Positions 12,816 through 31,239 of a stretch of DNA of 64,000 nt are shown here, piece by piece (the stretch's first letter is position 1; the number at the start of each line of letters is the position of its first letter). The notes below the pieces were generated by a model. The model did no database searches. It had not been told where the DNA came from and saw only the letters and a list, made by a program, of their open reading frames with translations. Source of the DNA: an uncultured Bacilli bacterium (lineage in GTDB: Bacteria; Bacillota_I; Bacilli_A; RFN20; CAG-826); contig CALVUI010000001.1 of NCBI GenBank assembly GCA_944363565.1, positions 408,075 to 472,074 of the forward strand, in the 5' to 3' direction. Both the position numbers and the translations under genes were made by a program.

Positions 12816-12825
12816 CGTAGTTCTC

Positions 12826-15503: not shown

Positions 15504-16076
15504 ATGGAAAAAATCCTCGTCTCGGCTTGCCTTTACGGAACCAAATGCCGCTACGACGGGAAGGACAACACCTCTCCCTTCCTCGTCGACGTCCTTTCGA
15601 AGCACTATGACCTCGTGGCCTATTGCCCGGAGGTCGAAGGGGGCCTCCCCATTCCCCGCCACCCGGCCGAAATCCAAAAAGACGGCCATGTCGTGAACGA
15701 CATCGGCGAGGACGTGACGAAAAACTACGAGGAAGGGGCCAAGAAGGCCCTGACCCTCTGCCGCTACTACGGCATCAAGATCGCCATCCTCAAGGACGGC
15801 TCCCCGGCCTGCGGACCCCGGAAGATCCACGACGGGAGCTTCAAGGGCAACAAGATCGACGGGCTGGGCGTGACTGCACGGTTACTGATCGCCAACGGGA
15901 TCAAGGTCTATGCCGAAACCGATGCCCTCAACTTCCTGATTCCCGAGGACAAGGAAGGGAAGAAACATGAAGAAGGGGTCTACGTCAGTGCCGCCGAACC
16001 CAAGAAGAAACCGCGTTATGGCTTCAAGAAAAGAAGGTCCTTCGACAAGAAACGTTCCTTCAAGGGGAAGAGATAG
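15504..16076 (+). CDS. DUF523 (TudS-like, putative Fe-S thiouracil desulfidase family) protein with a Lys/Arg-rich C-terminal tail
   Basis: N-terminal ACLYGTKCRYDG and a later GSPACG Cys triad typical of DUF523. The 30-residue basic tail (KKKPRYGFKKRRSFDKKRSFKGKR) is unusual. Confidence 0.65.
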   Translation: MEKILVSACLYGTKCRYDGKDNTSPFLVDVLSKHYDLVAYCPEVEGGLPIPRHPAEIQKDGHVVNDIGEDVTKNYEEGAKKALTLCRYYGIKIAILKDGSPACGPRKIHDGSFKGNKIDGLGVTARLLIANGIKVYAETDALNFLIPEDKEGKKHEEGVYVSAAEPKKKPRYGFKKRRSFDKKRSFKGKR

Positions 16077-16632
16077 GATCCTAAAGCTGACCCTGGCGGC
16101 CGTCCTGGCCGCTTTTTCCTATGTCGTCAGCGCCTTCCTCCCCATCCCCTATCCCGGCGGGGCCGGCTACTTCTCCTTCGGGGACGCGGTCAACATCCTT
16201 TCCGCCATGCTCCTTGGCCCCTACCTCGGGGCGGCGGTCGGGGCCCTGGCCGGTCTTTTCTCAGATTTGACGGCCGGCTACCTGGTTTTCATCCCCTTCA
16301 CCTTGGGCGCCAAGGCGGCCATGGGCCTTCTCGTCGGCTTTCTCTGGAAGCAAAGGAAGACCTGGCTCAGGTTCTTGGGTCTGGGCTTAGGACCCCTAGC
16401 CATGGTCTTGGTCTACGCGCACTCCTATTACGTCTACTATGGACTCCCCGGCCTCTGGTCTTGTCTATTTGATTTGGCCCAGGGCTATGGCGGCGCGGTC
16501 ATCGCCTATTTCGCCTATTTGATCCTAAAGAAAACCGGCCTCGCGGGCCGGCTTATCGACCTAGAAGACCCCGTTGGCCTCCAGGAAGTAGATGACGACG
16601 ATGGCCAGGACGAACATCAGGACGTAACCTAG
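16018..16632 (+). CDS. ECF-transporter substrate-specific (S) component-like membrane protein
   Basis: About six TM helices, Gly-rich, consistent with a small vitamin/precursor S-component. The start is uncertain: the ATG at 16018 overlaps the DUF523 tail in another frame. Confidence 0.5.
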   Translation: MASRKEGPSTRNVPSRGRDRILKLTLAAVLAAFSYVVSAFLPIPYPGGAGYFSFGDAVNILSAMLLGPYLGAAVGALAGLFSDLTAGYLVFIPFTLGAKAAMGLLVGFLWKQRKTWLRFLGLGLGPLAMVLVYAHSYYVYYGLPGLWSCLFDLAQGYGGAVIAYFAYLILKKTGLAGRLIDLEDPVGLQEVDDDDGQDEHQDVT

Positions 16633-16791
16633 GATCATCAGGACCTTTTCGTAGGGCTTGAGGCGGAAGCGCTTCTCGCTTTCCTCCTTCCTCAACTGCC
16701 CTTCCTTGCTATAGGCCGAGACGATGGGGCTTTCGTCCCTTTTGGCTTCCTCTTCCTTCTTCCCGACCTTCTTACCGCCGAGGCGCGCCAT
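16561..16791 (-). CDS. Small membrane protein with a basic N-terminus and one TM helix
   Basis: 76 aa. Its start is tightly coupled to the stop of the upstream 82-aa ORF. The 3' end overlaps the ECF gene end convergently. Confidence 0.3.
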   Translation of the reverse strand: MARLGGKKVGKKEEEAKRDESPIVSAYSKEGQLRKEESEKRFRLKPYEKVLMILGYVLMFVLAIVVIYFLEANGVF

Positions 16792-17040
16792 CTAGTGGGG
16801 ATGGTGGGTCGGGCCTTGGTCGTAGCTTTTCTTCTCGCTCCAAAGGAGGAAGAAGACGAGCCAGAGGACCAGGCAGAGGGCCCAGACCGGGATCAGGCAG
16901 GCCCCGGGGACGCTGAGGTCCGGCCGCCCGTAAAGGGGACCGCAGAGGAGGGCGGTCGAAATGGTGAGACTCACCAAGAAGAGGTAGAAGAAGATGTTGC
17001 CGAGCAACGATTTCTTGAAATTCTTCGGATTATTTTCCAT
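16792..17040 (-). CDS. Small two-TM membrane protein
   Basis: 82 aa, directly downstream of the amylase gene on the same strand. Confidence 0.35.
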   Translation of the reverse strand: MENNPKNFKKSLLGNIFFYLFLVSLTISTALLCGPLYGRPDLSVPGACLIPVWALCLVLWLVFFLLWSEKKSYDQGPTHHPH

Positions 17041-17078
17041 AAACCTATGGTAGAGGATTGTTGTCTCCTTGCCTAGAC

Positions 17079-19706
17079 CTAGTCACGGACCAAGAGGGCC
17101 GAGTGGGAAGGAAGGTCATAGAGGCCGTCGCTTCTCTTCACGCCCGCCCCGTTATAGGAGGCCAGGATCTCGGTCCCGATCCCCTCCCCGTACTTGGCAT
17201 CTTGGTTCGAGAAGTTGACCAAGACATGGAAGACGTCGTCGCCGAGGATCCGTTGGAAGTTGAGGATGTAGGGGTTGCCGTCCCAGCCGAAGGGAACGAA
17301 GTTCCCGCGGATGAGGGCCGGTTCGCTCCCCTTGGCCTTGGCGAAGGCGGCGAGGGCGTTGTAATGGCTATTGGGGTCTTCCATCTGGGCATAGGCCGGG
17401 GTCACGAGGTCGGAGGCGTTGATTTCGTCGAGCTCCACCCCGACTTCGGCCCCGTTGATCCCATAGTGGGGCCTGGTGGCCTCTTCGTCCCACTTCATCG
17501 GCTGACGGTAATAGAGGTCGGCGTAGTCGCTGTCCTCGTTCTTCCCCTCCGGGAAGTTGCCGCTCATGCCGAGTTCGTCGCCGTAGTAGATCCAGGTCAG
17601 GCCCGGGAGCATCAGCTGGGAAATCTGGACGCAGGTCGCTAATTCGTCGAGACTTTGGTAATTGCTGGCCGTGACCGTCCCCTGGGCCGCGATTCCGTCC
17701 CCGTTGAAGGCATTGGCCGCCACCCGGTTGATGGAACGGGCGATGTCGTGGTTGGAGGTGAAGCTCCCGACGATGGCCGAGTATTCGGCCGAACCGGTCT
17801 TCGGCATCGCCTCCCCGCCCCGGTAGCGGTTGTAGGCGCTCATGGCCTCGCGGAGGTTCCAGTGGCCCCCGTAGGGAACCGAGTGGGTCTTGTTGCCGCC
17901 CAAAGCGGCATCGCTAGAGGCACTATAGGGGGTCCCGCTCACGGTGCTCCCCAGATAGGTGGCAGCCGAGCCCTGGTAGGGGCCGGAAACCCCGTTCCGG
18001 TAGGCTTTGGCGGCCAGACTGGTGAGGTTGAAATAACTATAGAAGTCAAAGAGGGAGTCGAAGCCCTCGTAATAGGGGGCCACGTGGTAGGCATGGCCGT
18101 CGAAGTTCTCCCCGACGATGAAGGCGTTGGGGTACTTGTCCTTGATGGCGGCGTTTAATTCCCGCCAGAAATGGAGGTTCTTGGTCAGGTCGCTGCTGTA
18201 GTTCTCACCAGTGGCCGGGGTATCGATGACGTAGGTGTCGTTTTCGTCATAAGCCACCTCGTCTTCCATGTAGATGTGCTTGACGGCGTCCATCCTGAAG
18301 CCGTCGACCCCGATCTCGCACCAATTGAGGGCGATGGCCTCGACCGCCGCCCTGGTCCCGGTGTAGCTGAAATTGAGTTCGGGCATCGAGGAACCGAACT
18401 TGGCGTAGTAGCTATAGACCCGGTCCCCATAGGGATACCAGCAGTTTTCGATCGTGATGTCTTCCCCGGTCTCGTGGTTGGCCCAGCGGTAATAGCCCCG
18501 CATCGTCTCGTCCAACTGGGCCGAATCGACGAACCACTTGTTCCCGGTCGAGGTGTGGTTGATGACGAGGTCCATGATGACGGCCATGCCCCGGCTATGG
18601 GATTCGTCGAGCAAGAGCTTGTAGTCGGCCATCGCCGTCTTCTCGCTGACCTTGCCGCCGTTCTCGGTCCCGGCCGGCGAGACCTTGCTACCGAACTTCG
18701 GGTCGACGGTCAGGTAGTCGGTGATGTCGTAGCCGTGGTAGGAGTCGCTCAATTGAATCGGGGTAAGCCAGATGACGTCGACCCCGAGGTTCTTGATGTA
18801 GTCGAGATGCTGCACGATCCCGTAGATGTCGCCGAAACCGTCGGCGTCGCTATCGGCGAAGGAGGAAACCATGATCTGGTAACCGGTCCCGGCCCCGTTT
18901 TCGAAGAGCTGGTCGCCCTTTAGGAATTCCGGTGAGGTTTCCTTGATCGGAGCGGTCGTCGAGAAATCGACGTCGTTGTACTTGGCGTTGTTGTAGGTTT
19001 CGTTCTTGCCATCGTCCCCTTCGAAGGGATCCTCGGGTTCGGCGACCGGGGTCTTGGTGACGCTTTGGACCAGGTCCTGGGTCACGAAGGCGTGGTAGGA
19101 GGTGACGCCCCTTTCCTCGTCGACGAGGGCAAAGTCGTCGACGGTGACGTAGAGGTTGCTCCCGTCGTTGGTCCAAAAGCCCGAGCCGGTCCTAGTTTCG
19201 CTTTTGACGATCTGGAGGCCGATCTTTTCTTCCTTGGAGCCGAGTTCGTGGTTGGCCGCGAAGTCGATGCGGTCCCCGCCGATCTTCTTGTCGGCCTCGT
19301 TCCAGCCGCCGTCGTAGTCGCTCTTGGTGAGGTCGATGTCGACATAGACGTAACCGAACTCGTCGATGACGGGATTGCCGGAAGCGGTCTTGAGGTCGTC
19401 GGTCCCCTGGCTCCTCCCCTTCCAGTCGAACTTGACGCCCTGGCCTTCGTTGGGCCGATAAGGCCAGCACCAGACGTCCCAGTCGTTGTAGGACTCGGCG
19501 CTGGCGTCAAAACGCAGGTAATGGTAATAGAAATGGCCTTCCTCGCTGGTCTTGGCGAGGTTTTCCATATAGGCGTCGACCTCGTCCTGGGTATGGGGGC
19601 CGGTATCGACGGAAGTGCTCGATCCCGTCGGCCCGCAGGCCGTGAGGCCCATAGTCAGGACGAAACCCCCGAGCAAGAGGGGCAAACTGGCTTTCGATAT
19701 TTTCAT
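17079..19706 (-). CDS. GH13 alpha-amylase-family glycoside hydrolase, extracellular lipoprotein
   Basis: Signal peptide with lipobox LTAC (MKISKASLPLLLGGFVLTMGLTAC). GH13 regions (LTPIQLSDSYHGYDITDY, GVDGFRMDAVKHI, FIVGENF, FTSNHD). Start chosen at ATG 19706 with AAGGAGG 6 nt upstream. Confidence 0.85.
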   Translation of the reverse strand: MKISKASLPLLLGGFVLTMGLTACGPTGSSTSVDTGPHTQDEVDAYMENLAKTSEEGHFYYHYLRFDASAESYNDWDVWCWPYRPNEGQGVKFDWKGRSQGTDDLKTASGNPVIDEFGYVYVDIDLTKSDYDGGWNEADKKIGGDRIDFAANHELGSKEEKIGLQIVKSETRTGSGFWTNDGSNLYVTVDDFALVDEERGVTSYHAFVTQDLVQSVTKTPVAEPEDPFEGDDGKNETYNNAKYNDVDFSTTAPIKETSPEFLKGDQLFENGAGTGYQIMVSSFADSDADGFGDIYGIVQHLDYIKNLGVDVIWLTPIQLSDSYHGYDITDYLTVDPKFGSKVSPAGTENGGKVSEKTAMADYKLLLDESHSRGMAVIMDLVINHTSTGNKWFVDSAQLDETMRGYYRWANHETGEDITIENCWYPYGDRVYSYYAKFGSSMPELNFSYTGTRAAVEAIALNWCEIGVDGFRMDAVKHIYMEDEVAYDENDTYVIDTPATGENYSSDLTKNLHFWRELNAAIKDKYPNAFIVGENFDGHAYHVAPYYEGFDSLFDFYSYFNLTSLAAKAYRNGVSGPYQGSAATYLGSTVSGTPYSASSDAALGGNKTHSVPYGGHWNLREAMSAYNRYRGGEAMPKTGSAEYSAIVGSFTSNHDIARSINRVAANAFNGDGIAAQGTVTASNYQSLDELATCVQISQLMLPGLTWIYYGDELGMSGNFPEGKNEDSDYADLYYRQPMKWDEEATRPHYGINGAEVGVELDEINASDLVTPAYAQMEDPNSHYNALAAFAKAKGSEPALIRGNFVPFGWDGNPYILNFQRILGDDVFHVLVNFSNQDAKYGEGIGTEILASYNGAGVKRSDGLYDLPSHSALLVRD

Positions 19707-19732
19707 TTTCATCCTCCTTGAAGGCAAAAGAA

Positions 19733-19765
19733 AGGGGGCCGCTAGAAAATCAGCGGACCCCCCTA
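19733..19765 (-). terminator. Hairpin plus U-tract downstream of the surface-protein gene
   Basis: Minus strand GGGGGTCCGCT-gattttct-AGCGGCCCCC followed by TTTCTTTTG. Confidence 0.4.
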
Positions 19766-19775
19766 GAGAACATGG

Positions 19776-21047
19776 TTAGTCCCGGGCTCCGGCCCGACGG
19801 CGTTTGTAGACGGCGGCCACCCCGGCTCCGATGCCGGCGAGGCCGATGAAGAGGCTCCCGGCCAAAACAGCCTTGTCCTGGTCCTCGGTTAGTCCGAGGA
19901 AAGCAGCCGAAGAAGAGGCGAAGTTGCTCTCTTCGACCTTCATGGCGTTGATCTTGTCAAAAGCCGAAACGGTCGCGACCTTGCCTCCGTCATGGTCGGT
20001 ATCCATCGAGGCATAGTCCTTGATCATGGTGTTCCGCAAGACGGATTCGTCGACGTTCTTGAACCAATAATCGTAGAGTTCCTGGGCATTGCCGCTCCCG
20101 TTATCGAGGGACGGCGAGCAGGTGTCGCGGACTTCTAGAACGGCTTCGATCACTCCCCCGTCGGTCTTCAACGAGTTGTCGATGGCACCGGTGGCCACGG
20201 TCTTGCCATTGTCATAGACGTAGTGGATGCCGAGGTTGTCGCCGCTTTGGTAGACGGCACTATCGGTAGCGTTTTCGAAAGCCCCGCTATACTCATCGTA
20301 GGTTTTGATTTGCCAATCTTTCCCAACGGCTTCAACCGGCACGTCGAAAGCGGCCAACCAGTTATTACCGGCCATATCGGAATCGGTGTATTGAGGCCAT
20401 AGACTTGCCCCGATTTCGACATCGGTTCCGGAATCATCCCAATAATGGAAGGTGTGGAACTTTCCCGAGGTCTCGGAATTGCGGCGTTTGACGAAGAAGC
20501 GGAACGTTTCCTCGTCGGCGTTGCGGTCCACGATCGTATATTTCCAAGTGATGTTCGTACCCCAGCCTTGGCAATCGTAACTAGCGACGACCGAGAGGTT
20601 TTCAATTGGAGAAACCACGTAATTAGGCAGGGAAATATCCGCTGATTGGCCATTCCAGCCGTCAACCTTATTGGTAATGATTATATGGTCTGGGAATACG
20701 CCGTCCTTTTTTTCGATTTTGACATCGACGTACGATCCTTCGTCATCGGTTTGGATCGGGAAAGCCGCTAAATTTTCGCCCGTGCTTCCCCAATTGGTCA
20801 GGGAACCTGCGCCATTCTGCCACATATGGATACCGACTCGGCCGTTGAACCAACTAGGTTCCGAAACATAGAGCTTGAATTCAACGTATTGGGAATCCGA
20901 GGCCTCAGCCCCGACGTAGTCGGTGTCCATGTATTCCTGGGCCGCGATCCCGGCCCCGGTGACGGCGGCGCAGGCCATGACCCCCCCGAACAAAGTCAAC
21001 ATCAGTGATTTGTTCATAGTGGCGATCCTCCTTTCCGAAGTGTCCAT
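19776..21047 (-). CDS. Cell-surface protein with a signal peptide, two internal aromatic-rich repeats (putative starch/carbohydrate-binding) and a C-terminal TM anchor
   Basis: N-terminal signal (MNKSLMLTLFGGVMACAAVTG). Repeated W/Y-rich beta-type modules (HMWQNGAGSLTNWGS... / HYWDDSGTDVEIGASLWPQ...). C-terminal hydrophobic helix followed by KRRRAGARD. Confidence 0.5.
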   Translation of the reverse strand: MDTSERRIATMNKSLMLTLFGGVMACAAVTGAGIAAQEYMDTDYVGAEASDSQYVEFKLYVSEPSWFNGRVGIHMWQNGAGSLTNWGSTGENLAAFPIQTDDEGSYVDVKIEKKDGVFPDHIIITNKVDGWNGQSADISLPNYVVSPIENLSVVASYDCQGWGTNITWKYTIVDRNADEETFRFFVKRRNSETSGKFHTFHYWDDSGTDVEIGASLWPQYTDSDMAGNNWLAAFDVPVEAVGKDWQIKTYDEYSGAFENATDSAVYQSGDNLGIHYVYDNGKTVATGAIDNSLKTDGGVIEAVLEVRDTCSPSLDNGSGNAQELYDYWFKNVDESVLRNTMIKDYASMDTDHDGGKVATVSAFDKINAMKVEESNFASSSAAFLGLTEDQDKAVLAGSLFIGLAGIGAGVAAVYKRRRAGARD

Positions 21048-21066
21048 ATGCGGATATACAAAAACG

Positions 21067-21080
21067 TGTAACCGCTTACA
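21067..21080. promoter_or_regulatory. Catabolite-responsive element (cre)-like palindrome TGTAACCGCTTACA
   Basis: Perfect fit to the cre consensus TGWAANCGNTNWCA. It lies 20-50 nt upstream of the surface-protein gene start. Confidence 0.5.
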
Positions 21081-21138
21081 GATGGCAGTATTTTAACCCT
21101 CCGGAAACTTTAATCAAGAGAAGCGCTGGGAAAAGACG

Positions 21139-21164
21139 AAAAAAGAGGGGGCTATAGCCCCCTC
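21139..21164 (-). terminator. Rho-independent terminator after the pullulanase gene
   Basis: Palindrome GAGGGGGC-tata-GCCCCCTC with a minus-strand TTTTTT. Confidence 0.6.
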
Positions 21165-21180
21165 CTTCTTTTTGGAGCAA

Positions 21181-24100
21181 TCAGGAAACGCGCTTGAGGA
21201 GCAGAAGTTCGCTTCTGGCGATCCCGATGATGCCGTTATCGATGTTGAAGGTGGTGTCGGCGGTATGTTTGTCGTTCGAGCTATAGATGACCTCGAGGGT
21301 CCCGTTTCCGATCCCGAGATTCGTCCATGGATTGAGGGTCCGGCCGCCGAGCATCACGTAGTACTCCTCCCCTTCGGGGGCGAAGACGGCCCCGGTCGAG
21401 GTCCGCATGTTGACCCCTTCGCAGAGGTTGCCCCAGACCCAGGCGTGCTGGTCGTCCTTGATGTCGGTCTCGTAGTCCATCCCGAAGACGTGGCCCATCA
21501 TCTCGTTCCTGAGGTGGAAGGCCTCGATGGTCTTGAGGTAGGCCTCGTGATAGGTGACCTTGCGGTCCCACTTGAAGGAGTTGCACTCGTCACCGTAGTT
21601 GTAGGAGTTGCGGACTAACATCGTCCCATCCTCGAGCTTGAAGGCATCGGTATTGCTGGGATCGGTGGACTGGAGGTTTTCGATGACGGCGTAATAGGGA
21701 TCATCGGGCGAAAGGAGCTTCTGGCGGAAGATCTCGTCGCCCCCGTTGAGGAAGGCGATCCCTTGGCTGAGGGCCATGGCGGCGTTGAGGGCCACGGTTC
21801 CCCAGATGGCGTCCTCATTGTCTTCGGCCGAGGCCATCCCCGAGCCCATGCAGAAGTTCATCTGGTCGTAGAGGGTGTAGTTGTCGTGGCAGGCCACGTA
21901 GTTGACGGTCTGGGCCGGGTTGGCGCCCGGGGCCCGTTCGTTGATGCCGAGGAACTGGGCGGCCGCTTCCTTGGCCTTGTCGCCGACGTGCTCGGCCCCC
22001 TGGGTCAGGAAGCCGTAGTCGGGCTTGCCCCCTTCCCACTGGGTATTGCCCTTGAGGGCGTCGCGGCCCCCGTCGTTGAAGCAGCCGACGCTCCCCTTGC
22101 CGTTATCGTAGAGCTTGCTGTAGACGTGGGAGTTGCTGGCCTCTTCTTCGGCCGGTAAACCGGTCCCGTCGGGATTCCCGAAGGCCCCGTTCCAGCCCTC
22201 GCCATAGACGACGATCTGGGGATCGATGTCATAGAGGGCGTCCTTGACCGCCCGCATGGTGGTGACGTCGAGGCAGCCCATGAGGTCGAAGCGGAAGCCC
22301 TTGATGCCGTATTGCTCGGCCCAGAAGCACACCGAATCGACGATGTACTTGCGGACCATGGGACGCTCGGAGGCCGTGACGTTGCCGGTCCCGGAACCGT
22401 CGATGTAGGCCCCTTCGGCGTTCTTGCGGAAGAAGTAGTCGGGAATGACCTTGTTGAAGCAGTTGTTGCCGACGCTGGCCAGGTGGTTGTAGACCACGTC
22501 CATGATGATGCGGATGCCCTTGTCGGCGAAGGCCTTGATGAGGGTCTTGTATTCGAGGATGCGGGCCAAGGGATCGAAGGGATCGCTGCTGTAGCTGCCT
22601 TCCACCACGTTGTAGTTGAGGGGGTTGTAGCCCCAGTTGAAGGTCGGCTCCAAAATGACGTTGCCCTCTTCGTCCTCCACCGTCCTTTCGTCGTTGTCCT
22701 GGTCGAAGACCGGGAGCAACTGGACGGCGTTGACCCCGGTTTCCACGATGTGGTCGAAGCCGGTCTTGACGGTCAATGTCTTCCCTTCTTCCGTGGTCCC
22801 GGTATAGGTGGTGCCACTTTCGGCGAAGGCCAGGTAGGTCCCGGGCTTATTTTCCCCGACCCAGGTTTCGTCCATCGTCAGGTCGCGGATGTGGGCTTCG
22901 TAGACGCTTAGTTCGTTGGGGGCGGAAATCGCGTATTCAGTTTCCAGCGTTTCGATGGCCTCGTCGAAGCCGGCGGGTTCGGCATCCTCGGCCGCCCAGG
23001 CCGCCTCGTCCATGACGTAGCCCCTAAGGCCGTTGATGCCGGCGGCGTGGGCGTAGGGATCGATGGTTTCCTGGCTCCCGGAGGCCGTCGTCACGTAGTA
23101 GGTGTAGTAACGCCTGGTCGGCATGGCCCCGTCGGAGACGTAGGTCCAAACCCCGTTGTCCCCCGGGGTCATTTCCCGGGTCACATGGTTGTTGTAGCCG
23201 TTGACCACCTTCCCGTCCCGGTTGATTTCGGCCGTGGCGCCCACGACGTAGAGGAAGAGCTGGACCCGGCTGGCGGTCGGGGCCCAAAGCTTGTACTGGG
23301 CCTTGCCTTCCTCGTTGATGGTAAAGCCGAGGTCATCGCCCTCGTAGACGTATTCGGTTTGGAACTTCTCGGTGTCGTAGAGGTAGTTGAAGGAAGCCGA
23401 GGCCGACTTGACCTTCGAGGTGTCCTGGGCGAAGGTACATTCGAGGACGTAGTTGACCATCGGGTCGGCGTCTTCCTCAAGGGTAATCGTCAGTTCCTTG
23501 GCGTTCGGGGTACCGCTGGTGATGAGGTAGTCCTCCTTTTCCAAAGGGAAGGCCCCGTCAAGGGAGACGTAGTAGGCATTGTCATAGCCGTAGAGGCGAT
23601 AGGAGGCGATCTTCCCGATGTCTTCTTCCTCGCGCCCTTCTTCCGCCGTCCCGGTCCCGCGGACCGTCAAGGTGTTCCAGGAGGAGAAGTAGGCATCCCC
23701 CACCCGGTCGCCGAGGGCATCATTGCGGGCACTATAGGTATCGATGTTCCCGCCGGTTCCCTGGACGGCGTAGACGGTGATCATTTCCCGTCCCTGCCCG
23801 TCGGTCGTCTTGTTGGAGACGAACTTGTTGAAGGGGACGGCGATGTCCTTGCTTTGCCCGGCCCAGCTCCCGGCTTCCTTGACGATGAAGCTGATGGAAG
23901 CCAGTTCCATCCCCCCGAAGGGGACGGCGGACAGCTCGAGGTCGTAGTAGACCCCGTAGTCGTCGGGCGTCAGCTGGTTGGTGAAGCCGACTTCCCCGAG
24001 GGCGTTGCCGTCGACCCCGGCCGCCCAAATCCAAAGGCGCTTGGTGGCATAGTCGTTTTGGTCGTTGTGGTAGTAGATGCGGACGATCCCACCGAAGGCC

Positions 24101-24264
24101 ACGGGATCGCCGTAGTCGGTGGTCTCGCCGCTCCCTCCGGTCCCGCCTCCCTCGCTAGCCGAGGTGGTTTCCGAGCCGTTTGGATCGTTGGACTGGCTCG
24201 GCCCGCAGCCCGCCATTAGGGGCAAAACGAACAACAAGGGCAACAGCAGTTTCGAAAATTTCAT
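21181..24264 (-). CDS. pulA: Type I pullulanase (GH13), lipoprotein
   Basis: 1027 aa. Lipobox LMAGC. YNWGYNP pullulanase signature, VVYNH, GFRFDLMG, and N-terminal CBM41/48-like regions. AGGAG 6 nt upstream of the start. Confidence 0.85.
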   Translation of the reverse strand: MKFSKLLLPLLFVLPLMAGCGPSQSNDPNGSETTSASEGGGTGGSGETTDYGDPVAFGGIVRIYYHNDQNDYATKRLWIWAAGVDGNALGEVGFTNQLTPDDYGVYYDLELSAVPFGGMELASISFIVKEAGSWAGQSKDIAVPFNKFVSNKTTDGQGREMITVYAVQGTGGNIDTYSARNDALGDRVGDAYFSSWNTLTVRGTGTAEEGREEEDIGKIASYRLYGYDNAYYVSLDGAFPLEKEDYLITSGTPNAKELTITLEEDADPMVNYVLECTFAQDTSKVKSASASFNYLYDTEKFQTEYVYEGDDLGFTINEEGKAQYKLWAPTASRVQLFLYVVGATAEINRDGKVVNGYNNHVTREMTPGDNGVWTYVSDGAMPTRRYYTYYVTTASGSQETIDPYAHAAGINGLRGYVMDEAAWAAEDAEPAGFDEAIETLETEYAISAPNELSVYEAHIRDLTMDETWVGENKPGTYLAFAESGTTYTGTTEEGKTLTVKTGFDHIVETGVNAVQLLPVFDQDNDERTVEDEEGNVILEPTFNWGYNPLNYNVVEGSYSSDPFDPLARILEYKTLIKAFADKGIRIIMDVVYNHLASVGNNCFNKVIPDYFFRKNAEGAYIDGSGTGNVTASERPMVRKYIVDSVCFWAEQYGIKGFRFDLMGCLDVTTMRAVKDALYDIDPQIVVYGEGWNGAFGNPDGTGLPAEEEASNSHVYSKLYDNGKGSVGCFNDGGRDALKGNTQWEGGKPDYGFLTQGAEHVGDKAKEAAAQFLGINERAPGANPAQTVNYVACHDNYTLYDQMNFCMGSGMASAEDNEDAIWGTVALNAAMALSQGIAFLNGGDEIFRQKLLSPDDPYYAVIENLQSTDPSNTDAFKLEDGTMLVRNSYNYGDECNSFKWDRKVTYHEAYLKTIEAFHLRNEMMGHVFGMDYETDIKDDQHAWVWGNLCEGVNMRTSTGAVFAPEGEEYYVMLGGRTLNPWTNLGIGNGTLEVIYSSNDKHTADTTFNIDNGIIGIARSELLLLKRVS

Positions 24265-24286
24265 GTTTTTCTCCTCTAAAAAAGGC

Positions 24287-25909
24287 CTAGGCTTCCAGCA
24301 AAACGGTTGAATAGGCCGGTATTGAAAGGGAAGGCCCGCTTAGCGAGGCCCCTTGGCGCGAGGTTTGGATCTCGGCGGCGATGGAAGAAGGGCCCGGGAG
24401 GGTCACGTCCGAGGTTTCTTCCTTCACGTTGTGGATGAGGTAATAGTCCTTCCCCTCGGCCTCGATCTCAAAGGCCGGGCAATAAAGTCCAAGGGGGAGG
24501 ACCGACCACTCGGAAGACATGGCAAAGGCCTCGGGATGGCTGTTTCGGAGGCTAATGACCATCCGGTAATGGTTGAGAAGGCTATAGGGCTCGGCCAACT
24601 GGTCGTAGGCCCCTTTTGTAACCTGGGTCGAGGAATCGTCGTAGCCCTCGGGATTCTCCGCCCTTTGATGGCCTCTTCCCCAAACCATGGCCAAGCGTCT
24701 AGGAACGTCGTTTCCGTGGCCTCCCTTGCTCCCCCACATGTCGATTTCCTCCCCGTAATACATCCACGGGGTCCCGGGGGTAAGGAGGTACAAAGAAGCC
24801 AGCATCTTCTTGAGGCAGCCTTGGGTTTCGGCCCCTTTGGCGGCGAAGTAACCGTTGCTACGGTCGGTATCGTGGTTGGCGACGAAGAAGGAAAGGCAGG
24901 TTTCGGGACTGGCTTTCTGGCTCCTTTCGACGGCATCGACGACGACGTCGGGTAGATACGAAAGCTGCCCGGTGCTGTTGAGGGCCCCGGCCGGGCCGTT
25001 GCCCTTCATCTCGCTGGTCGGGAAATTGAAGAAATTGAGGCCGCTTGCTTGGTAGGCGGAAATGGTGCTTTGGCCGGTGACCCAAGCTTCCCCGATGACG
25101 TAGCACTCCGGCTTGATGCCCTCGCAAACCCCCTTGAACCAAGTGAGGAACTCGACGTTTCTCGGGGCGCTGCCGTAATAATAATAGATGGCAGCGTCGA
25201 GGCGGAAGCCGTCAACGTCGTGGTCTTCCAGCCAGAATCGGGCGATGTTCGAAAACTCTTCCCGTACCTCGGGGTTGTCGCAGTTGAATTCGGGCATCGA
25301 AACGTCGAAGTTGGCCTCGTAATAAGCACCGGCCGTGGCATTGTAGGCAAAGCCGTTTCCGGAATTTTCGCTCCAGACGTACCAGTCCTTCTTGCTATCT
25401 TCCCCCTCGTTACCGTCCCGGTAGTCCTCGGCGCTTTGGAGGAACCAGGGATTGGTGGACGAAGAATGGTTGAGGACGAGGTCGATGATGATTTCGATGC
25501 CGGCTTCGTGGAGGGTGTCTACGAGGGCATCGAAGTCCTCGAGGGTCCCGTATTCTTGACGGACGCCGTAATAATCGCTGACGTCATAGCCGTGGTAGGA
25601 ATTGGTTGGATAAAAGGGGGTAAGCCATACCCGGCGGATACCGAGGGCCTCCAGGTAGGGGACCTTGTCCTTGATGCCTATGAGGTCGCCTTGTCCGTCG
25701 CTGTTGCCGTCGGCGAAGCTACCGGTGAAGATCTCGTAGCCGACCCCTTCGTAGGGGGCATCGGCTTCTAAAAGGTCGTAGCCGGGGCTGTCGACGATGG
25801 GCTGGGGGCCGCAGGAAGAAAGGGAAGCCGCCAAAAAAACCAAAAGAGCGAGGCAGGTTGCCCTGCCCGCCCCTCTTTTGACGGTCTTCGCGATGTGACC
25901 GAAAACCAT
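24287..25909 (-). CDS. GH13 alpha-amylase-family hydrolase, lipoprotein
   Basis: Lipobox LSSC. GH13 regions (RVWLTPFYPTNSYHGYDVSDYY, GIEIIIDLVLNHSS, GFRLDAAIYY, YVIGEAW). Confidence 0.8.
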   Translation of the reverse strand: MVFGHIAKTVKRGAGRATCLALLVFLAASLSSCGPQPIVDSPGYDLLEADAPYEGVGYEIFTGSFADGNSDGQGDLIGIKDKVPYLEALGIRRVWLTPFYPTNSYHGYDVSDYYGVRQEYGTLEDFDALVDTLHEAGIEIIIDLVLNHSSSTNPWFLQSAEDYRDGNEGEDSKKDWYVWSENSGNGFAYNATAGAYYEANFDVSMPEFNCDNPEVREEFSNIARFWLEDHDVDGFRLDAAIYYYYGSAPRNVEFLTWFKGVCEGIKPECYVIGEAWVTGQSTISAYQASGLNFFNFPTSEMKGNGPAGALNSTGQLSYLPDVVVDAVERSQKASPETCLSFFVANHDTDRSNGYFAAKGAETQGCLKKMLASLYLLTPGTPWMYYGEEIDMWGSKGGHGNDVPRRLAMVWGRGHQRAENPEGYDDSSTQVTKGAYDQLAEPYSLLNHYRMVISLRNSHPEAFAMSSEWSVLPLGLYCPAFEIEAEGKDYYLIHNVKEETSDVTLPGPSSIAAEIQTSRQGASLSGPSLSIPAYSTVLLEA

Positions 25910-25912
25910 TGA

Positions 25913-26830
25913 CTAACCCTTGACGGCGCCGCCGGTAACCCCGGAGACGTAGTAACGCTGCATGCAAAGGAAGACGATGGCGACCGGAATGGCGACGATG
26001 ACGGCTCCGGCGCAGAACTGGCCCCAGTATTTGCCACGCCGTCCGTCCTCGACCGCCAGCATGTTGTTGAGCAAGATGGCGACGGTCCAGTTGGTCTTCT
26101 CGACGTTGGCGCTGCCTAGGACGTAGGAGGCCGTGATGTATTCTCCCCAAGGCGACATGAAGGCCGTGAGGGCGGTATAGACGACGATTGGTTTGCTCAG
26201 CGGCATGATGATCTTATAGAAGATCTGGAACCTCGTTGCCCCGTCGATCATGGCCGCTTCGTCGATCTGCTTGCTGATGGTATCGAAGAAGCCCTTCGAA
26301 ATGTAATAGCCCATGCCGGCCCCGCCGCTATAGATGATGATGAGGGACCAGATGGTCTGGCGGATTCCGATGGTATCCATGAACCAGTACATGATGATGA
26401 GGGAGAGGAAGCCCGGGAACATCCCGAGAATCAGGATGACCCGCATGAACCCGGTCCTCGCCTTGAAGCGGAGACGGCTGAAGGCATAGGCGGTGGCAAG
26501 GGTCATGATGGTCGCGATGACCATGCAGAACAAGGCGATGAGGAGGGTGTTGACGAAAGCTCCGAGGTAGAGCGTCCCGTTTTCCACGTAACCGAAGAAG
26601 TTGTACATGGACGAAGCCGTGCTCCCGTTGATGGAAACGACCGCGTTGGTGGCCAGCCCCGCGTAATTGCCGAACCAAAATTCGGTGGGAATGAAGGAAG
26701 AGGCACCGCCATAGCCCCTGGCCGAGAAGCTTTGGAGGACGAGCCAAACGATGGGCAGCACCCAGATGACGGCCAGGATGGTCAGGATTATGTAGACGAC
26801 GATGTCGCCGATTATTCTTCTTGCTTTCAT
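25913..26830 (-). CDS. Carbohydrate ABC transporter permease (MalG-like)
   Basis: Six TM helices and the EAA loop (AAMIDGATRFQIFYKIIMP). Confidence 0.85.
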   Translation of the reverse strand: MKARRIIGDIVVYIILTILAVIWVLPIVWLVLQSFSARGYGGASSFIPTEFWFGNYAGLATNAVVSINGSTASSMYNFFGYVENGTLYLGAFVNTLLIALFCMVIATIMTLATAYAFSRLRFKARTGFMRVILILGMFPGFLSLIIMYWFMDTIGIRQTIWSLIIIYSGGAGMGYYISKGFFDTISKQIDEAAMIDGATRFQIFYKIIMPLSKPIVVYTALTAFMSPWGEYITASYVLGSANVEKTNWTVAILLNNMLAVEDGRRGKYWGQFCAGAVIVAIPVAIVFLCMQRYYVSGVTGGAVKG

Positions 26831-29511
26831 TATTGGAAGGCCTCCTCATTCTTGACGCTTCCCATCCGGTTGTAGACCACGAGGGAGAGGAAGGCACAGA
26901 CGGCGAAGATGGCAAGACCGATGACCGAGGCGATGTTGTAGTTCTTCTCGACCCCGGTGCAAAGGTTGTAAAGCCAGTTGACCAAGAGGTCAGTATCGGC
27001 CGCCGTCGAAACCAACGGGGCCATTCCTTTGTTCGGACCCCTCGTCCCGACGAGGAAGTAGATGACGTTGAAGTTGTTGATGTTCCCCACGAAGGTCGTG
27101 ATGAGGCTAGGCCCGGTCACGAAGACGACGTAGGGCATGGTGATGGAAACCAATTGGCGGAAGGCCCCGGCCCCGTCGATCTTCGCCGATTCGTAGAGAT
27201 CTTCGGGGATGTTCATGAGGATGCCGGAGACCGATAGCATGGTGTAGGGGACGCCGATCCACATGTTGACGATGATACACATGACCTTCGGTATGAGGGC
27301 CATGTTGGCGGTATCGGTGAAAAACTTGACGTTAAAGCCGAAAGTCGTCATCAGGAACGAATTGACGGGGCCTTCGCTGGAGAGAAGGAGGTTCATCGCC
27401 AACAAGGTGATGAACTGCGGGATGGCAATGGAGAGGACGAACATCGTCCGGTAGATGGCCTTTCCCTTGATGGTCTTGCGGTTGATGAGCAGGGCCAGCA
27501 GAATGCCGGCGATGTAGTTGGTGAAGGTCGCGAAGATGGCCCAGACGATGGTCCAGCCCAAGAGCCTCACGAAGGTGCCACCGTAACTCGAGGCTCCGGA
27601 AGTCGACCCGAAGACGTTGAAGACCTGGGAGAAGCCCGAGAGGTCCCATGTAAAGAGGTTGGCCGTATGATCGGCATCCCAGTTGGTGAATCCGACGATG
27701 ATGGAGCAAATGAGCGGAAGGATGGTAACGATGATGGCCCCGAGGGTCGGAATGGTCATTACGGAAATCGCGAACTTCTCGTCGGCGAATTCTTTGACCC
27801 GCTTCAATGAGCCGGTCGGCTTGCCGTGATGTGGGGTCTTTTTGATCGATTCGGTGTAGGAATCATAGAAACCGGCCCGGGTCTCGAGGAACTTGATGGA
27901 TTCCATTTCGTCGTCCTTGGTCCCGGCGATCGTGAATTTATAGTCACGGTAAACCCGTTTGGCGTTTTCGGGGCTAAGCCCGTAGGCATTGACGAGGGCC
28001 GAGGTGAAGACCCTATCCCCTTCATCGTAGAAACGCCTAAGCTCCAAATACGAACGATAGGCTTTGGCCATGGCCTCGGATTGCCGTATCGGGGTTTCGC
28101 CGTACTTTTCGACGAAGTCCTCGACGCGGGCTTCGTGGACCCCGCGGATTTTCTCGAAATCGGCGAGGACGGCCTCTCTAGCTTCCTCTTCCGCACTCCC
28201 CGTCTTGAGGGCGGCTGAAAGGCTCCGCAAGGCCACTTTCGTCACCTTCTTGGCCATGTCGAGGGGGATTTCGAAGGCGCCGACGACGCGGGTCACCGTC
28301 ATCCCGTAACGTAGCTTGCTTCCGAAGGGCAAGGGTTTTATTCCGTTGCTTTGGGAGACGGGATCGCGGGCGAAGAGGGCATCGTAGAGCTTTTCGCCCT
28401 GGTCGAAAACCCGGATGATGGTCTTTTCGTCGCGCAAGAAGCTATGGTAGTCGTTGTACTTGTCGAATTTATGGTGGAAAACGGTATTTTCCTGTTTCTG
28501 TTTTTCGGCTAGATAGGCGATTCCGCCCTTGATGACCAACTTAGGCTCCTTCGGGAAAAGGAACCTCTCAAGGGGCGAGCACCAAGTCCGGGCCCGCATC
28601 CAGACGGCCTTGTCCTTGTAGAATTCGTAGAAACGCTTCCTGAGGTTGAAACTCAAATTCTCTAGGGCGTTTGGTTCGGTTTTCTTGACCTTCTTCCAAT
28701 AGACGTAGCTGATGTAGGCGGCACTGCGGCGGCTGTAGCCGTACTTCAGCTGCATCAGGTCGAAAACTTCCTTCCGCCCCATGTCGGCCAAGTACTTCCT
28801 ATGGCCATCTACTTCCTTGCTGAATTCGTTGTAGTGGTCGATGACGTAGGCAGCATCGGCCCGGGCCTTACTATATTCGGACTGATGGACGATCTGGTGG
28901 GTGTCGTACATCGCCCTGATGCCGGTAATGAAGAGCAGCGCATAGGCGACGCAGATGATGATCGTCAAAACGCCAAGGAGCAAGACCAATTGGTTGTTGC
29001 CGGGCATCGCCATGGTGCCGCCGCCGGGACGGACGATGATTTCCGGTTCCTCGGAAAGGTTTATGAGGTCGGCAATGAAACCTCCTCCGAAGAGGGCCAT
29101 GTAAAGGACGAAGATGATTTCAACCCCCAGGAAGACGAAGCCGTCGAGCCATTGCTTGGCCCGGAGGTTTCCGGCCCCTTGGACGATGAAGCCGAGGCGG
29201 TACGACCAATCCACGTCGCGCCAGATGCGCACGAACTTGCGGACCAGATAATAGGCCCCGACGAAGATTCCGGCGATGGCTTTGAAAACGAAAGCCACTA
29301 TTTTGCATAGACCGAGAACGACGTCGATGAGGAAGCTCAGGACCCAGATGAGACATTTCAGAACGACGTTCAAGATGCCGCGTCCCAGAGACAGATACCA
29401 CGGTTCGGGTTTGAATTCCTCATTTCCGATTCCCGCGAGGGCTTCGTAGGAAGAAGAAGGCGCTGACTGCTCTTCCGCTTCCTCGAGGCCTTGGTTTTCG
29501 TTTTCAACCAT
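26830..29511 (-). CDS. Carbohydrate ABC transporter permease (MalF-like) with a very long N-terminal extension
   Basis: C-terminal ~300 aa is a MalF-type core with the EAA loop (AKIDGAGAFRQLVSITMP). The N-terminal ~550 aa holds extra TMs and a ~380-aa hydrophilic K/E/Y-rich insert. Start at Met33 (ATG 29511, AAGGAGA 7 nt upstream). Confidence 0.75.
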   Translation of the reverse strand: MVENENQGLEEAEEQSAPSSSYEALAGIGNEEFKPEPWYLSLGRGILNVVLKCLIWVLSFLIDVVLGLCKIVAFVFKAIAGIFVGAYYLVRKFVRIWRDVDWSYRLGFIVQGAGNLRAKQWLDGFVFLGVEIIFVLYMALFGGGFIADLINLSEEPEIIVRPGGGTMAMPGNNQLVLLLGVLTIIICVAYALLFITGIRAMYDTHQIVHQSEYSKARADAAYVIDHYNEFSKEVDGHRKYLADMGRKEVFDLMQLKYGYSRRSAAYISYVYWKKVKKTEPNALENLSFNLRKRFYEFYKDKAVWMRARTWCSPLERFLFPKEPKLVIKGGIAYLAEKQKQENTVFHHKFDKYNDYHSFLRDEKTIIRVFDQGEKLYDALFARDPVSQSNGIKPLPFGSKLRYGMTVTRVVGAFEIPLDMAKKVTKVALRSLSAALKTGSAEEEAREAVLADFEKIRGVHEARVEDFVEKYGETPIRQSEAMAKAYRSYLELRRFYDEGDRVFTSALVNAYGLSPENAKRVYRDYKFTIAGTKDDEMESIKFLETRAGFYDSYTESIKKTPHHGKPTGSLKRVKEFADEKFAISVMTIPTLGAIIVTILPLICSIIVGFTNWDADHTANLFTWDLSGFSQVFNVFGSTSGASSYGGTFVRLLGWTIVWAIFATFTNYIAGILLALLINRKTIKGKAIYRTMFVLSIAIPQFITLLAMNLLLSSEGPVNSFLMTTFGFNVKFFTDTANMALIPKVMCIIVNMWIGVPYTMLSVSGILMNIPEDLYESAKIDGAGAFRQLVSITMPYVVFVTGPSLITTFVGNINNFNVIYFLVGTRGPNKGMAPLVSTAADTDLLVNWLYNLCTGVEKNYNIASVIGLAIFAVCAFLSLVVYNRMGSVKNEEAFQ

Positions 29512-29588
29512 AGCGTTTCTCCTTTTCTTTCTTCCCGATAAAAGGAAACCCGGGGCGGGCGGGCCGCCCCGGGGTTTTGGCGTTTGGC

Positions 29589-30956
29589 TTAGTCGCCGGT
29601 CGCCCAACCGGTGGTGCTGGTAATCATCCCAGCGATGGCCTCGGCGGCGGTGGTGTATTCACTGCCCCAAGGATGATCGGTCCCGGCGTTGTCGCGGATG
29701 AGGGCACCGAAGTTTTCCATCGGGGTCCAGAAGTTCGGGGTGACGTTGGCACCCTGCGGGACGGTGTTCCCGGCGAGTTCCATGGTTTGGAGGGCCATGA
29801 GGAATTCGTTGCTCGTGACCTTTTCGTCATCGCGAAGGCTGATGTCGGCCGGACCGTAGCCACGGACATCGAGGAGGGTCTTCTGCGATTCGGTGGAAGT
29901 CAGGTATTCGGCGAAGTCCCAGGCCAGGTCTTCACGGCTGATGTCCGGGGCTTCCTCGCCTTCTTCGAGCTTCCAATTGATCGTTTCGTTGATGACGTTG
30001 GCGTTCACGGAAACGGCCTTGTAGCCAAGGAAGGTCTTCATCTGCTTGTCCACGCCGTTGATTTTGAGGCTCGGAAGGACGGTGACCTTGATGTCATCGG
30101 CTCTGTCTTCGCCAACGGCGGTACGGATGTTTTCGAGGGCGTTCCAGAGGACACAGGCCCCGACGGTACCATCGGCAAAGCCTTCTTGGATGGAGGCACT
30201 ATCATCGCTGGCCACGATCCCGTCGCCGCCATCGCTGGTCTCGATGCCGTATTCGCCGAAGAGTTCGCTCATGGCTTCGGCACCGGCAGCGACTTCGGGG
30301 GTATCGAAGTTCGAGCTGAGGATGACCTTGCCGTCGATGACCTCGGCGGAGAATTCACCGCCGGCTGCCCAAAGGAATGTCGGGGTATACCAGCCATTGG
30401 CTAGGGGATAAAAGAAGTCGACATGGTTGGTAACGCAGGCTTCGGCGATGCCTTCCATGGTCTTGACCTGCTCGTCCGTGATCTTCTTGGAGTCGTAGAT
30501 GAGGGCGTACCCGTTGTCGTTCCTGAAGGGAATGCCGTAAGCCTGCATCTCGGCGGTGGCGGTTTCAAGGCTAACGGCGTCTAGCCCGGCTTGGCCGGCC
30601 TGCTCCAAAACGGCGGCTTCGCGATCGTCCCCGATCGGAAGGATGGCGCTGGCTTCCGCGGCGGTCCTGAGGTTGTCGTCGGCAATCATGACGACGTCGG
30701 GCTGGCTCTTGTAGTCGGTCTGGAGGGCGTTGCCGATATCGCCTTCGCCGCCGTTGGCGGTCACGGCGATATTGAGGTCAGCATACTCAGGATGGGCTTC
30801 CTTGAACTTCTCGATGATGGTGGCCATGACCTCGTTGTCCTGCTCCGGGCAATAGATGGTCAGGTCGTAGACGGGGCCGGTCGGACCGCAGCCGGCAAGG
30901 GCCATGAGCCCGGTACCGGCGACGAGGGCCAGCATCCCCACTTTCTTGTTGAACAT
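29589..30956 (-). CDS. Carbohydrate ABC transporter substrate-binding lipoprotein (MalE-like)
   Basis: Lipobox LAGC (MFNKKVGMLALVAGTGLMALAGC) and family 1 solute-binding fold. AAGGAG 9 nt upstream of ATG 30956. Confidence 0.85.
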   Translation of the reverse strand: MFNKKVGMLALVAGTGLMALAGCGPTGPVYDLTIYCPEQDNEVMATIIEKFKEAHPEYADLNIAVTANGGEGDIGNALQTDYKSQPDVVMIADDNLRTAAEASAILPIGDDREAAVLEQAGQAGLDAVSLETATAEMQAYGIPFRNDNGYALIYDSKKITDEQVKTMEGIAEACVTNHVDFFYPLANGWYTPTFLWAAGGEFSAEVIDGKVILSSNFDTPEVAAGAEAMSELFGEYGIETSDGGDGIVASDDSASIQEGFADGTVGACVLWNALENIRTAVGEDRADDIKVTVLPSLKINGVDKQMKTFLGYKAVSVNANVINETINWKLEEGEEAPDISREDLAWDFAEYLTSTESQKTLLDVRGYGPADISLRDDEKVTSNEFLMALQTMELAGNTVPQGANVTPNFWTPMENFGALIRDNAGTDHPWGSEYTTAAEAIAGMITSTTGWATGD

Positions 30957-31087
30957 TAAATTAGCTCCTTTCCAAATTGTTTGGCGACACGCTCGGCAAA
31001 GAGCCGCGTCGCTTTGCAATTTAATCTCAACATGGCTATATATTAAGCGAGGACGGACGAGTTGCAAGAGGAAAAGTAAGCGGTTTC

Positions 31088-31101
31088 AGAAAGCGCTATC
31101 A
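31088..31101. promoter_or_regulatory. cre-like element AGAAAGCGCTATCA (13/14 match) in the MalE-like gene upstream region
   Basis: Near-consensus TGWAANCGNTNWCA about 135 nt upstream of the transporter operon start. Confidence 0.35.
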
Positions 31102-31239
31102 TGATTCGGGATAAAACATTCCCGATGCCAAAAAAACTAGGTTAGGCCTCAACTAATGTTTTGGGTCGCTTCCAAAAGGAAGAAGGCTCCTAAAGAGAGC
31201 GGGGAAAAGTTAAGAAAGAGGGCTGCTGAAAAGGAAAAC

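Follow-up and report, generated by a model that had tools for sequence, protein, structure and literature searches.

A probable alpha-glucan utilization operon with membrane-anchored enzymes and an enlarged MalF in an uncultured Bacilli bacterium

Described starch systems and the locus in the window

The starch system of Eubacterium rectale and, more broadly, the Gram-positive polysaccharide utilization loci (gpPULs; Sheridan et al. 2016, PMC5320581) rely on enzymes of glycoside hydrolase family 13 (GH13) that bear carbohydrate-binding modules (CBMs) and are held at the surface or membrane, together with a CUT1 importer served by lipoprotein binders. The locus described here, at positions 16561-31110 of a 64-kb stretch from the genome of an uncultured Bacilli bacterium (contig CALVUI010000001.1; the whole stretch is referred to as the window), shares these features and is closest to such E. 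rectale-type Gram-positive starch systems. It consists of nine co-oriented open reading frames (ORFs) on the minus strand (16561-30956), all of them present at the positions where the initial annotation had claimed a nine-gene starch cluster. With good confidence, we read the locus as a chromosomal, vertically inherited operon for the utilization of alpha-glucans (starch, glycogen or pullulan) in reduced-genome, probably wall-less Bacilli akin to the order RFN20 and family CAG-826.

In the direction of transcription, the cluster encodes a MalE-like binding lipoprotein, a giant MalF-type permease, a MalG-type permease, a GH13_36-like amylase, a type-I-like pullulanase, a membrane-anchored protein with a CBM26-like first domain, a second GH13 lipoprotein and two small membrane proteins. 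Families were assigned with Pfam and NCBIfam, seven of the nine products having a domain or family match, and start codons were refined from ribosome-binding sites. All hydrolase genes belong to this one cluster, which is co-oriented and comprises two or more transcription units; the third-position GC content of the nine ORFs is high (0.68-0.86), and ORFs on the opposite strand are an ordinary by-product of 58% GC. A search with the MalF family retrieved three syntenic relatives, namely L001 (79% MalF identity), L002 (62%) and L006 (67% over the best-matching segment, 50% over the full length), in which the nine genes follow the same order and are flanked alike, by rpsU/deoC on one side and by an energy-coupling factor (ECF)-type S-component gene, a 2-thiouracil desulfurase gene and pheST on the other.

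Measured against the gpPUL definition, the locus supplies both enzymes (three GH13 genes) and a transport system (malE, malF and malG), but because no gene for a transcriptional regulator lies in the cluster or elsewhere in the 64-kb window, it falls outside that definition (PMC5320581). It further departs from the E. rectale and gpPUL pattern in that it has no enzyme anchored to the cell wall by LPXTG, the hydrolase genes sit together in one cluster, and MalF carries a 580-residue N-terminal extension. On the other hand, the E. rectale GH13_36 amylase 7JJN is among the closest solved homologues of the 540-aa amylase encoded here.

Other described systems share individual traits. Compared with MalEFGK2 of Escherichia coli and MdxEFG-MsmX of Firmicutes, the extra mass of MalF would consist of four helices and a cytoplasmic domain instead of a P2 loop, and the binding protein is lipid-anchored. 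The amylosome of Ruminococcus bromii (Amy12, Amy10, Sas) has a similar pullulanase and likewise places a non-catalytic starch-binding protein (putative in our case) beside the enzymes, whereas here Pfam detects no dockerin or cohesin, and the anchors are lipids or a transmembrane helix rather than scaffoldins. The Bacteroides Sus system follows the same logic of one or more surface binding proteins, a lipoprotein amylase and a dedicated importer in one locus; SusG is a GH13_36 member, and the 540-aa enzyme has a SusG_C domain. In contrast to Sus, however, no SusC or SusD match was found by Pfam in the cluster, there is no outer membrane, and import is of the ABC type.

We found no description of such an operon in the literature linking RFN20 or CAG-826 to starch or GH13; a resistant-starch study in which RFN20 is named has no bearing on it. 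Bacteria of this type are common in rumen and hindgut metagenomes and uncultured, with a metabolism known only from gene-presence tables. From the locus one can draw a specific picture, open to testing, of how a reduced and probably wall-less cell might live on alpha-glucans: lipid or helix anchors would fasten all parts to the membrane, one ABC importer would take up the products, and control would run through conserved catabolite-responsive element (cre)-type sites without a local regulator gene. The current understanding of starch utilization is not overturned by it; the cluster is real but fairly ordinary, a new case of an already known type of alpha-glucan system. What it adds is a clade-specific, presumably cytoplasmic MalF domain, an unnamed family of membrane-anchored CBM26-like proteins, and an apparent allelic replacement, at the strain level, of the surface-exposed parts of the system.

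As we picture its operation, the polymer would be held at the surface by the membrane-anchored CBM26-like protein together with the PUD and CBM48 modules of the pullulanase, and would be cut by three enzymes that N-terminal lipid anchors place on the outer face of the membrane, the large GH13 enzyme and the GH13_36-like amylase cleaving alpha-1,4 bonds and the type-I-like pullulanase removing alpha-1,6 branches. Maltodextrins would then be captured by the lipoprotein MalE-like protein and handed to the MalF-MalG permease, with import powered by an MsmK/MalK-type ATPase encoded elsewhere in the genome. Transcription would proceed from two sigma-70-type promoters, each furnished with LacI-family (cre-type) operators that a CcpA-like global regulator most likely recognizes, while the ratios of the products might be set by incomplete termination behind malE and behind the CBM26-like gene.

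Membrane-anchored hydrolases, a CBM26-like protein and the importer

In the translations of all three hydrolases, GH13 regions I-IV with the catalytic Asp/Glu/Asp are intact. They read DLVLNH, GFRLDAA, GEAW and FVANHD in the 540-aa amylase (24287-25909; Pfam Alpha-amylase and SusG_C), whose best full-length solved relatives are 7JJN, 7JJT, 9FZ2, 1WZA and SusG; as 7JJN, 7JJT, 1WZA and SusG (3K8K) are GH13_36 members (PMC11940188), these relatives suggest, by proxy, a GH13_36-like enzyme. The 1027-aa pullulanase (21181-24264; PUD, CBM48 and GH13) has the motifs DVVYNH, GFRFDLM, GEGW and VACHDN as well as FNWGYNP. Its best NCBIfam match is pulA_typeI (TIGR02104; 467.1 bits versus a cut-off of 504.5), and its closest solved structures are type I pullulanases, including Amy12 and Amy10 of R. 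bromii. In the 875-aa second GH13 lipoprotein (17079-19706; Pfam Alpha-amylase), the corresponding motifs are DLVINH, GFRMDAVKH, GENF and TSNHD. A PUD-like reading of its N-terminus was dropped, as BLASTP showed no similarity to the pullulanase N-terminus and Pfam was empty there. Throughout the locus, the solved proteins most similar to those encoded are enzymes acting on starch and binders of maltodextrins, from gut Firmicutes and Bacteroides.

The lipoboxes previously reported for the three hydrolases, LSSC in the 540-aa amylase, LMAGC in the pullulanase and LTAC in the 875-aa enzyme, are indeed present, as is LAGC in MalE, and in each case the cysteine is followed by Gly-Pro (PROSITE-like pattern). 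They are kept in the orthologues of L001, L002 and L006 and of the more distant L003 (down to about 38% MalF identity), and a lipobox is also kept in the binding proteins of twelve further loci. The concern that the GH13 proteins might be intracellular enzymes devoid of functional signal peptides therefore found no support, the N-terminal signal peptides ending in conserved lipoboxes. LPXTG signals are absent from all surface proteins of the cluster. The initial annotation went further in calling the system a membrane-tethered analogue of those in walled bacteria. Lipid anchoring was found as proposed; tethered amylases and pullulanases also occur in walled bacteria, so that lipoprotein tethering is not in itself a wall-less adaptation. 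The same window contains lspA (2415-3023; Pfam Peptidase_A8), the gene for signal peptidase II.

Given that all enzymes carry export and lipidation signals, their substrate is expected to be extracellular. Yet GH13, pullulanase and CBM48 modules work equally on glycogen, and both glgABP and pulA are common in environmental Tenericutes (PMC7301438), which would fit enzymes acting on glycogen (own, microbial or host) or on pullulan-like glucans rather than on dietary starch. We regard this as rather improbable: besides the export signals, CBM26 modules are starch binders by Pfam definition, and the relatives stem from rumen and hindgut collections of metagenome-assembled genomes (MAGs). The machinery would be identical either way.

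The 413-aa protein (19776-21017) belongs to no Pfam or NCBIfam family. Its N-terminal signal sequence is followed by a CBM26-like module (about residues 45-130), then by a second beta-rich domain and a small domain whose TC...DNG motif is invariant, and the protein ends in a transmembrane helix with a KRRR tail. When the family alignment was compared with Pfam-defined CBM26 segments, hhalign returned a probability of 95.9% (E 6e-9) over residues 59-130, with the first Trp (HMW) aligned to the aromatic of the CBM26 YAW/YAY, the second Trp (TNW) to that of WPG, and QSADI paired with QTADL. Besides, several of the multidomain relatives that reach into the part shared with the 413-aa protein carry Pfam CBM26 exactly there. 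The proposal of a surface-anchored putative starch-binding protein is thus supported by remote homology and gene neighbourhood, and the anchor would be the C-terminal helix. Since this helix and the basic tail are kept family-wide and an N-terminal Cys is not, the protein is best read as a type I membrane protein. A lipoprotein reading was downgraded, the Cys being absent in L006 and in most family members, and neither LPXTG nor any other conserved motif precedes the C-terminal helix in 24 members of the family.

How large this family appears depends on the search. A word-indexed search gave 11 clusters, and an exhaustive profile search gave 1041 matches at E up to 0.001, many of which cover only an extra N-terminal module; among the 150 best of the 1041, roughly 40 are proteins of about 400 aa with the architecture of the 413-aa protein itself. 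Against PDB sequences, the family profile produced only non-significant matches, the best relevant one being 2C3V, an alpha-amylase G-6 fragment (E 0.52). The extra module, of about 110 aa, is found in 524-aa relatives and not in the 413-aa protein; it accounts for many of the roughly 1000 exhaustive matches, including very large multidomain proteins, sometimes together with CBM26, X25 or CBM48 in the same protein, and may be a further unnamed starch-binding module. One such distant family member (P0041, 524 aa; locus L087, 1-11575) has its gene at the end of a starch locus of unrelated layout, about 10 kb downstream of a pullulanase gene, with an 884-aa GH13 gene and five ORFs without a Pfam match in between.

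For import, the locus provides the parts of a CUT1 system. The MalE-like solute-binding lipoprotein (455 aa, 29589-30956) matches Pfam SBP_bac_8 (E 1.4e-22) and also SBP_bac_1, and its closest solved relatives are MalE1 and the CUT1 sugar-binding protein 4UA8, which we take to be an E. rectale protein. The MalF-type (893 aa, 26830-29511) and MalG-type (305 aa, 25913-26830) permeases both match BPD_transp_1, have MalF and MalG as their best NCBIfam families, and carry EAA loops (YESAKIDGAG in MalF and DEAAMIDGAT in MalG); the fold matches as well. The start of malG overlaps the stop of malF, and malF begins with an ATG after a good ribosome-binding site, which gives the length of 893 aa. To judge from their scores, neither permease is an equivalog of its E. 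coli namesake.

In MalF, the NCBIfam match is confined to residues about 680-910, and the canonical six-helix CUT1 core with the EAA loop occupies residues 579-893. It is preceded by four extra transmembrane helices (about residues 42-203; hydropathy and positive-inside count) and by a 375-aa all-helical, K/R-rich domain (residues 204-578; 67 Lys and Arg) that is predicted to be cytoplasmic and lies ahead of the first core helix. An AlphaFold2 (AF2) model shows residues about 330-560 as a confident helical bundle, with a predicted local distance difference test (pLDDT) score of 80-92. This domain, the only really unfamiliar part of the locus, has no match in Pfam or the PDB. Across 17 sequences it retains the invariant motifs H-x3-DKYN, RD, D-x-VS-xx-N and G-x-F, and in the loci examined, from RFN20-like Bacilli, it occurs only inside malF (11 distinct giant-MalF loci) and never as a separate gene. 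An enlarged P2 loop as in E. coli MalF was rejected on topology: only about 40 residues make up the external loop that follows the first core helix, and because the extra mass consists of four helices and a domain on the cytoplasmic side, the size of MalF is not due to a P2-type loop. In L006, MalF (10001-13372) reaches 1123 aa, and part of its helical domain aligns to the query as two tandem copies, a sign of internal duplication.

Speculatively, the 580-residue extension could be a new functional module of CUT1 importers, for instance a regulatory or docking platform for a cytoplasmic partner, an idea that we put forward as a tentative one with the chances against it. If true, it would couple maltodextrin import to the ATPase, to HPr/CcpA signalling or to a maltodextrin-processing enzyme, in cells from which further levels of control have disappeared. 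As had been stated before, the 64-kb window has no ABC ATPase gene by Pfam and by tblastn with probe sequences. MsmK/MalK-like ATPase genes are linked to giant malF in some distant loci (L016, L037, L048, L056, L065 and L083) and not in the close relatives.

Several of these results weigh against the functional assignments. The pullulanase stays below the NCBIfam equivalog cut-off, the 875-aa enzyme matches solved relatives only generically as GH13, and its 270-aa N-terminal region has no Pfam match (E up to 1). MalF scores 156 bits where the NCBIfam cut-off is 392, and MalG 144 where it is 261, although these are nonetheless the best-scoring families. Pfam CBM26 (PF16738) is called neither in the 413-aa protein nor, at E up to 10, in 12 members of its family; the CBM26 link comes from profile-profile comparison only, and the AF2 model of the protein is poor (mean pLDDT 41).

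Promoters, operators and terminators

Upstream of malE lies a putative promoter, P1 (31040-31067, minus strand; TTGCAA, a 16-nt spacer and TAATAT), which agrees with the consensus at 8 of 12 positions and escaped the promoter scan; its TTGCA and TA..AT are kept in four genomes. Just upstream of the -35 element are tandem cre-like operators, TGATAGCGCTTTCT and TGAAACCGCTTACT (31075-31101, minus strand), each matching 13 of 14 consensus positions; the two sites (31088-31101 and 31075-31088) abut and have one base in common. In an alignment of the malE upstream regions of the window, L001, L002 and L006, this operator block is invariant and the sequence 5' of it is unalignable. A second, sigma-70-like promoter, P2 (21117-21090, minus strand; TTGATT, a 16-nt spacer and TAAAAT), lies 3' of the pulA terminator, and an exact cre, TGTAAGCGGTTACA (TGTAACCGCTTACA; 21080-21067, minus strand), starts about 10 nt downstream of its -10 hexamer. 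Both the perfect site and the 13/14 site at 31088-31101 had been pointed out in the initial annotation and are real; the other member of the tandem pair adds a third.

Such sites are rare in the window. By chance, 0.05 exact cre consensus matches would be expected in it, the observed count was reached in 0 of 100 shuffles, and with a matrix built from the sites only four positions in 64 kb score at least 12 bits, three of which are at the two promoters of the operon. A cre-like site is kept at P2 in all four genomes, with shifts in exact position and sequence: in L002 it has moved onto the -35 element, and in L006 its sequence differs, the pattern to be expected for a functional site that is turning over. 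Conservation extends to distant giant-MalF loci (GC 27-65%): of twelve examined, seven carry a strong site that precedes the ATG of the binding-protein gene by 80-155 nt (binomial P about 5e-9 at the density of sites observed there; the scoring matrix drew on one of the seven). The doubt as to whether the sites would be conserved in relatives is thereby answered in their favour, for the three syntenic relatives as well as for seven of these distant loci. The fourth strong position, GGAAAGCGCTTCCA at 35022-35035, precedes the gene of a 271-aa multi-pass membrane protein (34178-34993, minus strand) and is kept at the same place in L002 (4432-4445), which suggests a regulon wider than the alpha-glucan genes.

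The arrangement at P2 resembles that of Bacillus subtilis amyE, where the cre read by CcpA likewise lies just downstream of the promoter -10 in an amylase locus; amyO, presumably TGTAAGCGTTAACA, would differ from the site at 21067-21080 at two positions. P1, with its tandem pair upstream of the -35, is different in this respect.

Control of the CcpA type, as proposed in the initial annotation, is in keeping with cre-consensus sites conserved at the promoters, but the sites would fit any LacI-family operator with a central CG. Because the TGnAAnCGnTTnCA core is common to LacI-family operators, CcpA and MalR are not discriminated by sequence alone, and the palindromes could instead be operators of a dedicated, unlinked LacI repressor of the MalR/MdxR type that answers to maltose or maltodextrin. 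Two further observations would suit such a repressor: the tandem sites upstream of the P1 -35 are atypical for repression by CcpA, and loci with a MalF of normal size, mostly from Clostridia MAGs, have an adjacent LacI-family gene (L025, L034, L040, L068 and L080). Those are, however, the only places at which LacI-family genes were found. By tblastn, none was detected within 10 kb of any giant-MalF locus, and by Pfam and tblastn none in the 64-kb window, the latter in agreement with the earlier statement that no LacI/MalR regulator is present there; ccpA, ptsH (HPr) and hprK are absent from the window as well. Moreover, none of the operon's sites deviates from the classical cre consensus at more than one of its 14 positions, and the fourth site, kept in L002, precedes an unrelated membrane protein gene. 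A dedicated maltose-responsive repressor is therefore a possibility to be kept in mind rather than our expectation; we lean, with about even confidence, towards a CcpA-like global regulator, because the fourth conserved site hints at a wider regulon. What speaks against this choice is the position of the P1 operators upstream of a putative -35, the transcription start being only predicted; in Bacillus, an operator upstream of the -35 is more typical of activation than of repression.

Terminators had been claimed after the pullulanase and surface-protein genes, and both were found. The first is a strong intrinsic terminator with a 14-bp stem and a U-run (21170-21139, minus strand; -23.1 kcal/mol, z -3.8), and the second a terminator-like hairpin between the 413-aa and second GH13 genes (19764-19732, minus strand; -22.8 kcal/mol, z -3.7). 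Two more had been missed: a terminator-like hairpin with a U-run at the end of the cluster (about 16554-16527, minus strand; hairpin scan) and a GC-rich hairpin with a U-run between malE and malF (29573-29549, minus strand). The latter is a weak call, as z is only -1.6, and is likely a partial terminator or attenuator, which would raise the ratio of binding protein to permease. In the malE leader (30957-31035), a block CCATGTTGA(G/T)ATTA(A/G)ATTG, placed where the transcript is predicted to begin, hardly varies and is followed 3' by a hairpin with three compensatory pairs across the four genomes; this element could be a second regulatory element or an mRNA-stabilizing structure.

Inheritance of the locus and its probably wall-less host

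The term island, under which the cluster was first described, is apt for a gene cluster but not for a mobile or horizontally acquired element. The GC content of the cluster is that of the rest of the window; the analysis revealed neither a tRNA gene nor an integrase nor flanking repeats (scans of the window with Rfam and for tRNAs returned nothing), and a repeat search of the region returned only coding similarity in GH13 region I. With uniform composition and with housekeeping neighbours shared by the relatives, the cluster does not qualify as a mobile island. A different impression arises from loci L001 and L086, which belong to the same species as the window because their flanks are 96.7-97.6% identical to it: in 300-nt windows, the region between about 31100 and 22400, covering everything from malE to the greater part of pulA, is only about 65-90% identical, roughly 80% overall, and the segment 21138-20274, which includes the CBM26-like domain, drops to 38-87%, with a core (20841-20574) that is barely alignable. 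Between these segments, identity is back at 97% (22338-21139), and in the remainder it is at least 96%. In addition, L001 has a Fur-family gene (7185-7535) and about 1 kb between rpsU and malE, where the window has only 180 nt of unrelated spacer. Divergence of this kind might be taken as the mark of a horizontally acquired genomic island, but with the same nine genes between the same neighbours in relatives of 62-79% MalF identity, besides the uniform GC and the lack of mobility features, we consider an island very unlikely.

The pattern of divergence is that of allelic replacement by homologous recombination within an orthologous locus rather than that of an insertion. The protein identities to the conspecific (MalE 69%, the 413-aa protein 69%, the 540-aa amylase 73%, MalF 79%, MalG 88% and the 875-aa enzyme 99%) seem to follow exposure, with divergence strongest in the proteins predicted to be surface-exposed.

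As to the host, giant MalF proteins occur in the named GTDB representatives Candidatus Enteromonas and Candidatus Alectryobacillus, both of which belong to the order RFN20, family CAG-826 (PMC8035907). Among RFN20 genomes, mraY is present in 14% and murG in 5%, and pulA has been noted in these lineages (PMC7301438). Apart from the cluster, the window holds housekeeping genes by Pfam; these include mraZ, rsmH, a 78-aa ORF, ftsA and ftsZ, which are contiguous on the minus strand (5696-9741) and leave no room for pbp, mur, mraY or ftsW. A minimal mraZ-rsmH-ftsA-ftsZ arrangement is seen in Mollicutes. The minimal division and cell wall cluster, together with relatives in a lineage that mostly lacks mraY and murG, makes the wall-less reading plausible, and the host is probably wall-less.

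If the host were walled instead, lipoprotein anchoring would be an ordinary Firmicute habit, and the comparison with walled systems would add nothing. Walled bacteria often hold their amylases, pullulanases and binding proteins as lipoproteins or by other membrane anchors, as exemplified by E. rectale and R. bromii, the sources of the closest solved homologues, and by Klebsiella PulA. Complete peptidoglycan pathways were present in four modelled RFN20 and RF39 genomes, yet two of the four were without genes for UDP-N-acetylglucosamine synthesis, and mraY and murG are as scarce in RFN20 as stated above (PMC7301438). With the division cluster leaving no room for pbp, mur or ftsW, no LPXTG in the surface proteins, and the sole non-lipoprotein among them anchored by a C-terminal transmembrane helix, a walled host is improbable in our view, and we retain the wall-less reading.

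Two small membrane proteins complete the cluster. The 82-aa protein (16792-17040) has two transmembrane segments by hydropathy and has the motif LLCGPLYGR in common with its L002 counterpart (22551-22676), its Cys-Gly-Pro echoing the Cys-Gly-Pro with which all four mature lipoproteins of the operon open. The 76-aa ORF (16561-16791) has a charged N-terminus and one transmembrane segment by hydropathy; as the conspecific genome alone showed a counterpart, it is less certain to be a real gene. Its last 72 nt (16561-16632) are shared with the 3' end of the ECF-type S-component gene (15967-16632, plus strand), which is convergent with it, and the last terminator-like hairpin of the operon falls inside that gene. 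Elsewhere in the window, a 663-aa protein with AMP-binding and phosphopantetheine-attachment domains is encoded at 53014-55005, by the only plus-strand gene in its neighbourhood.

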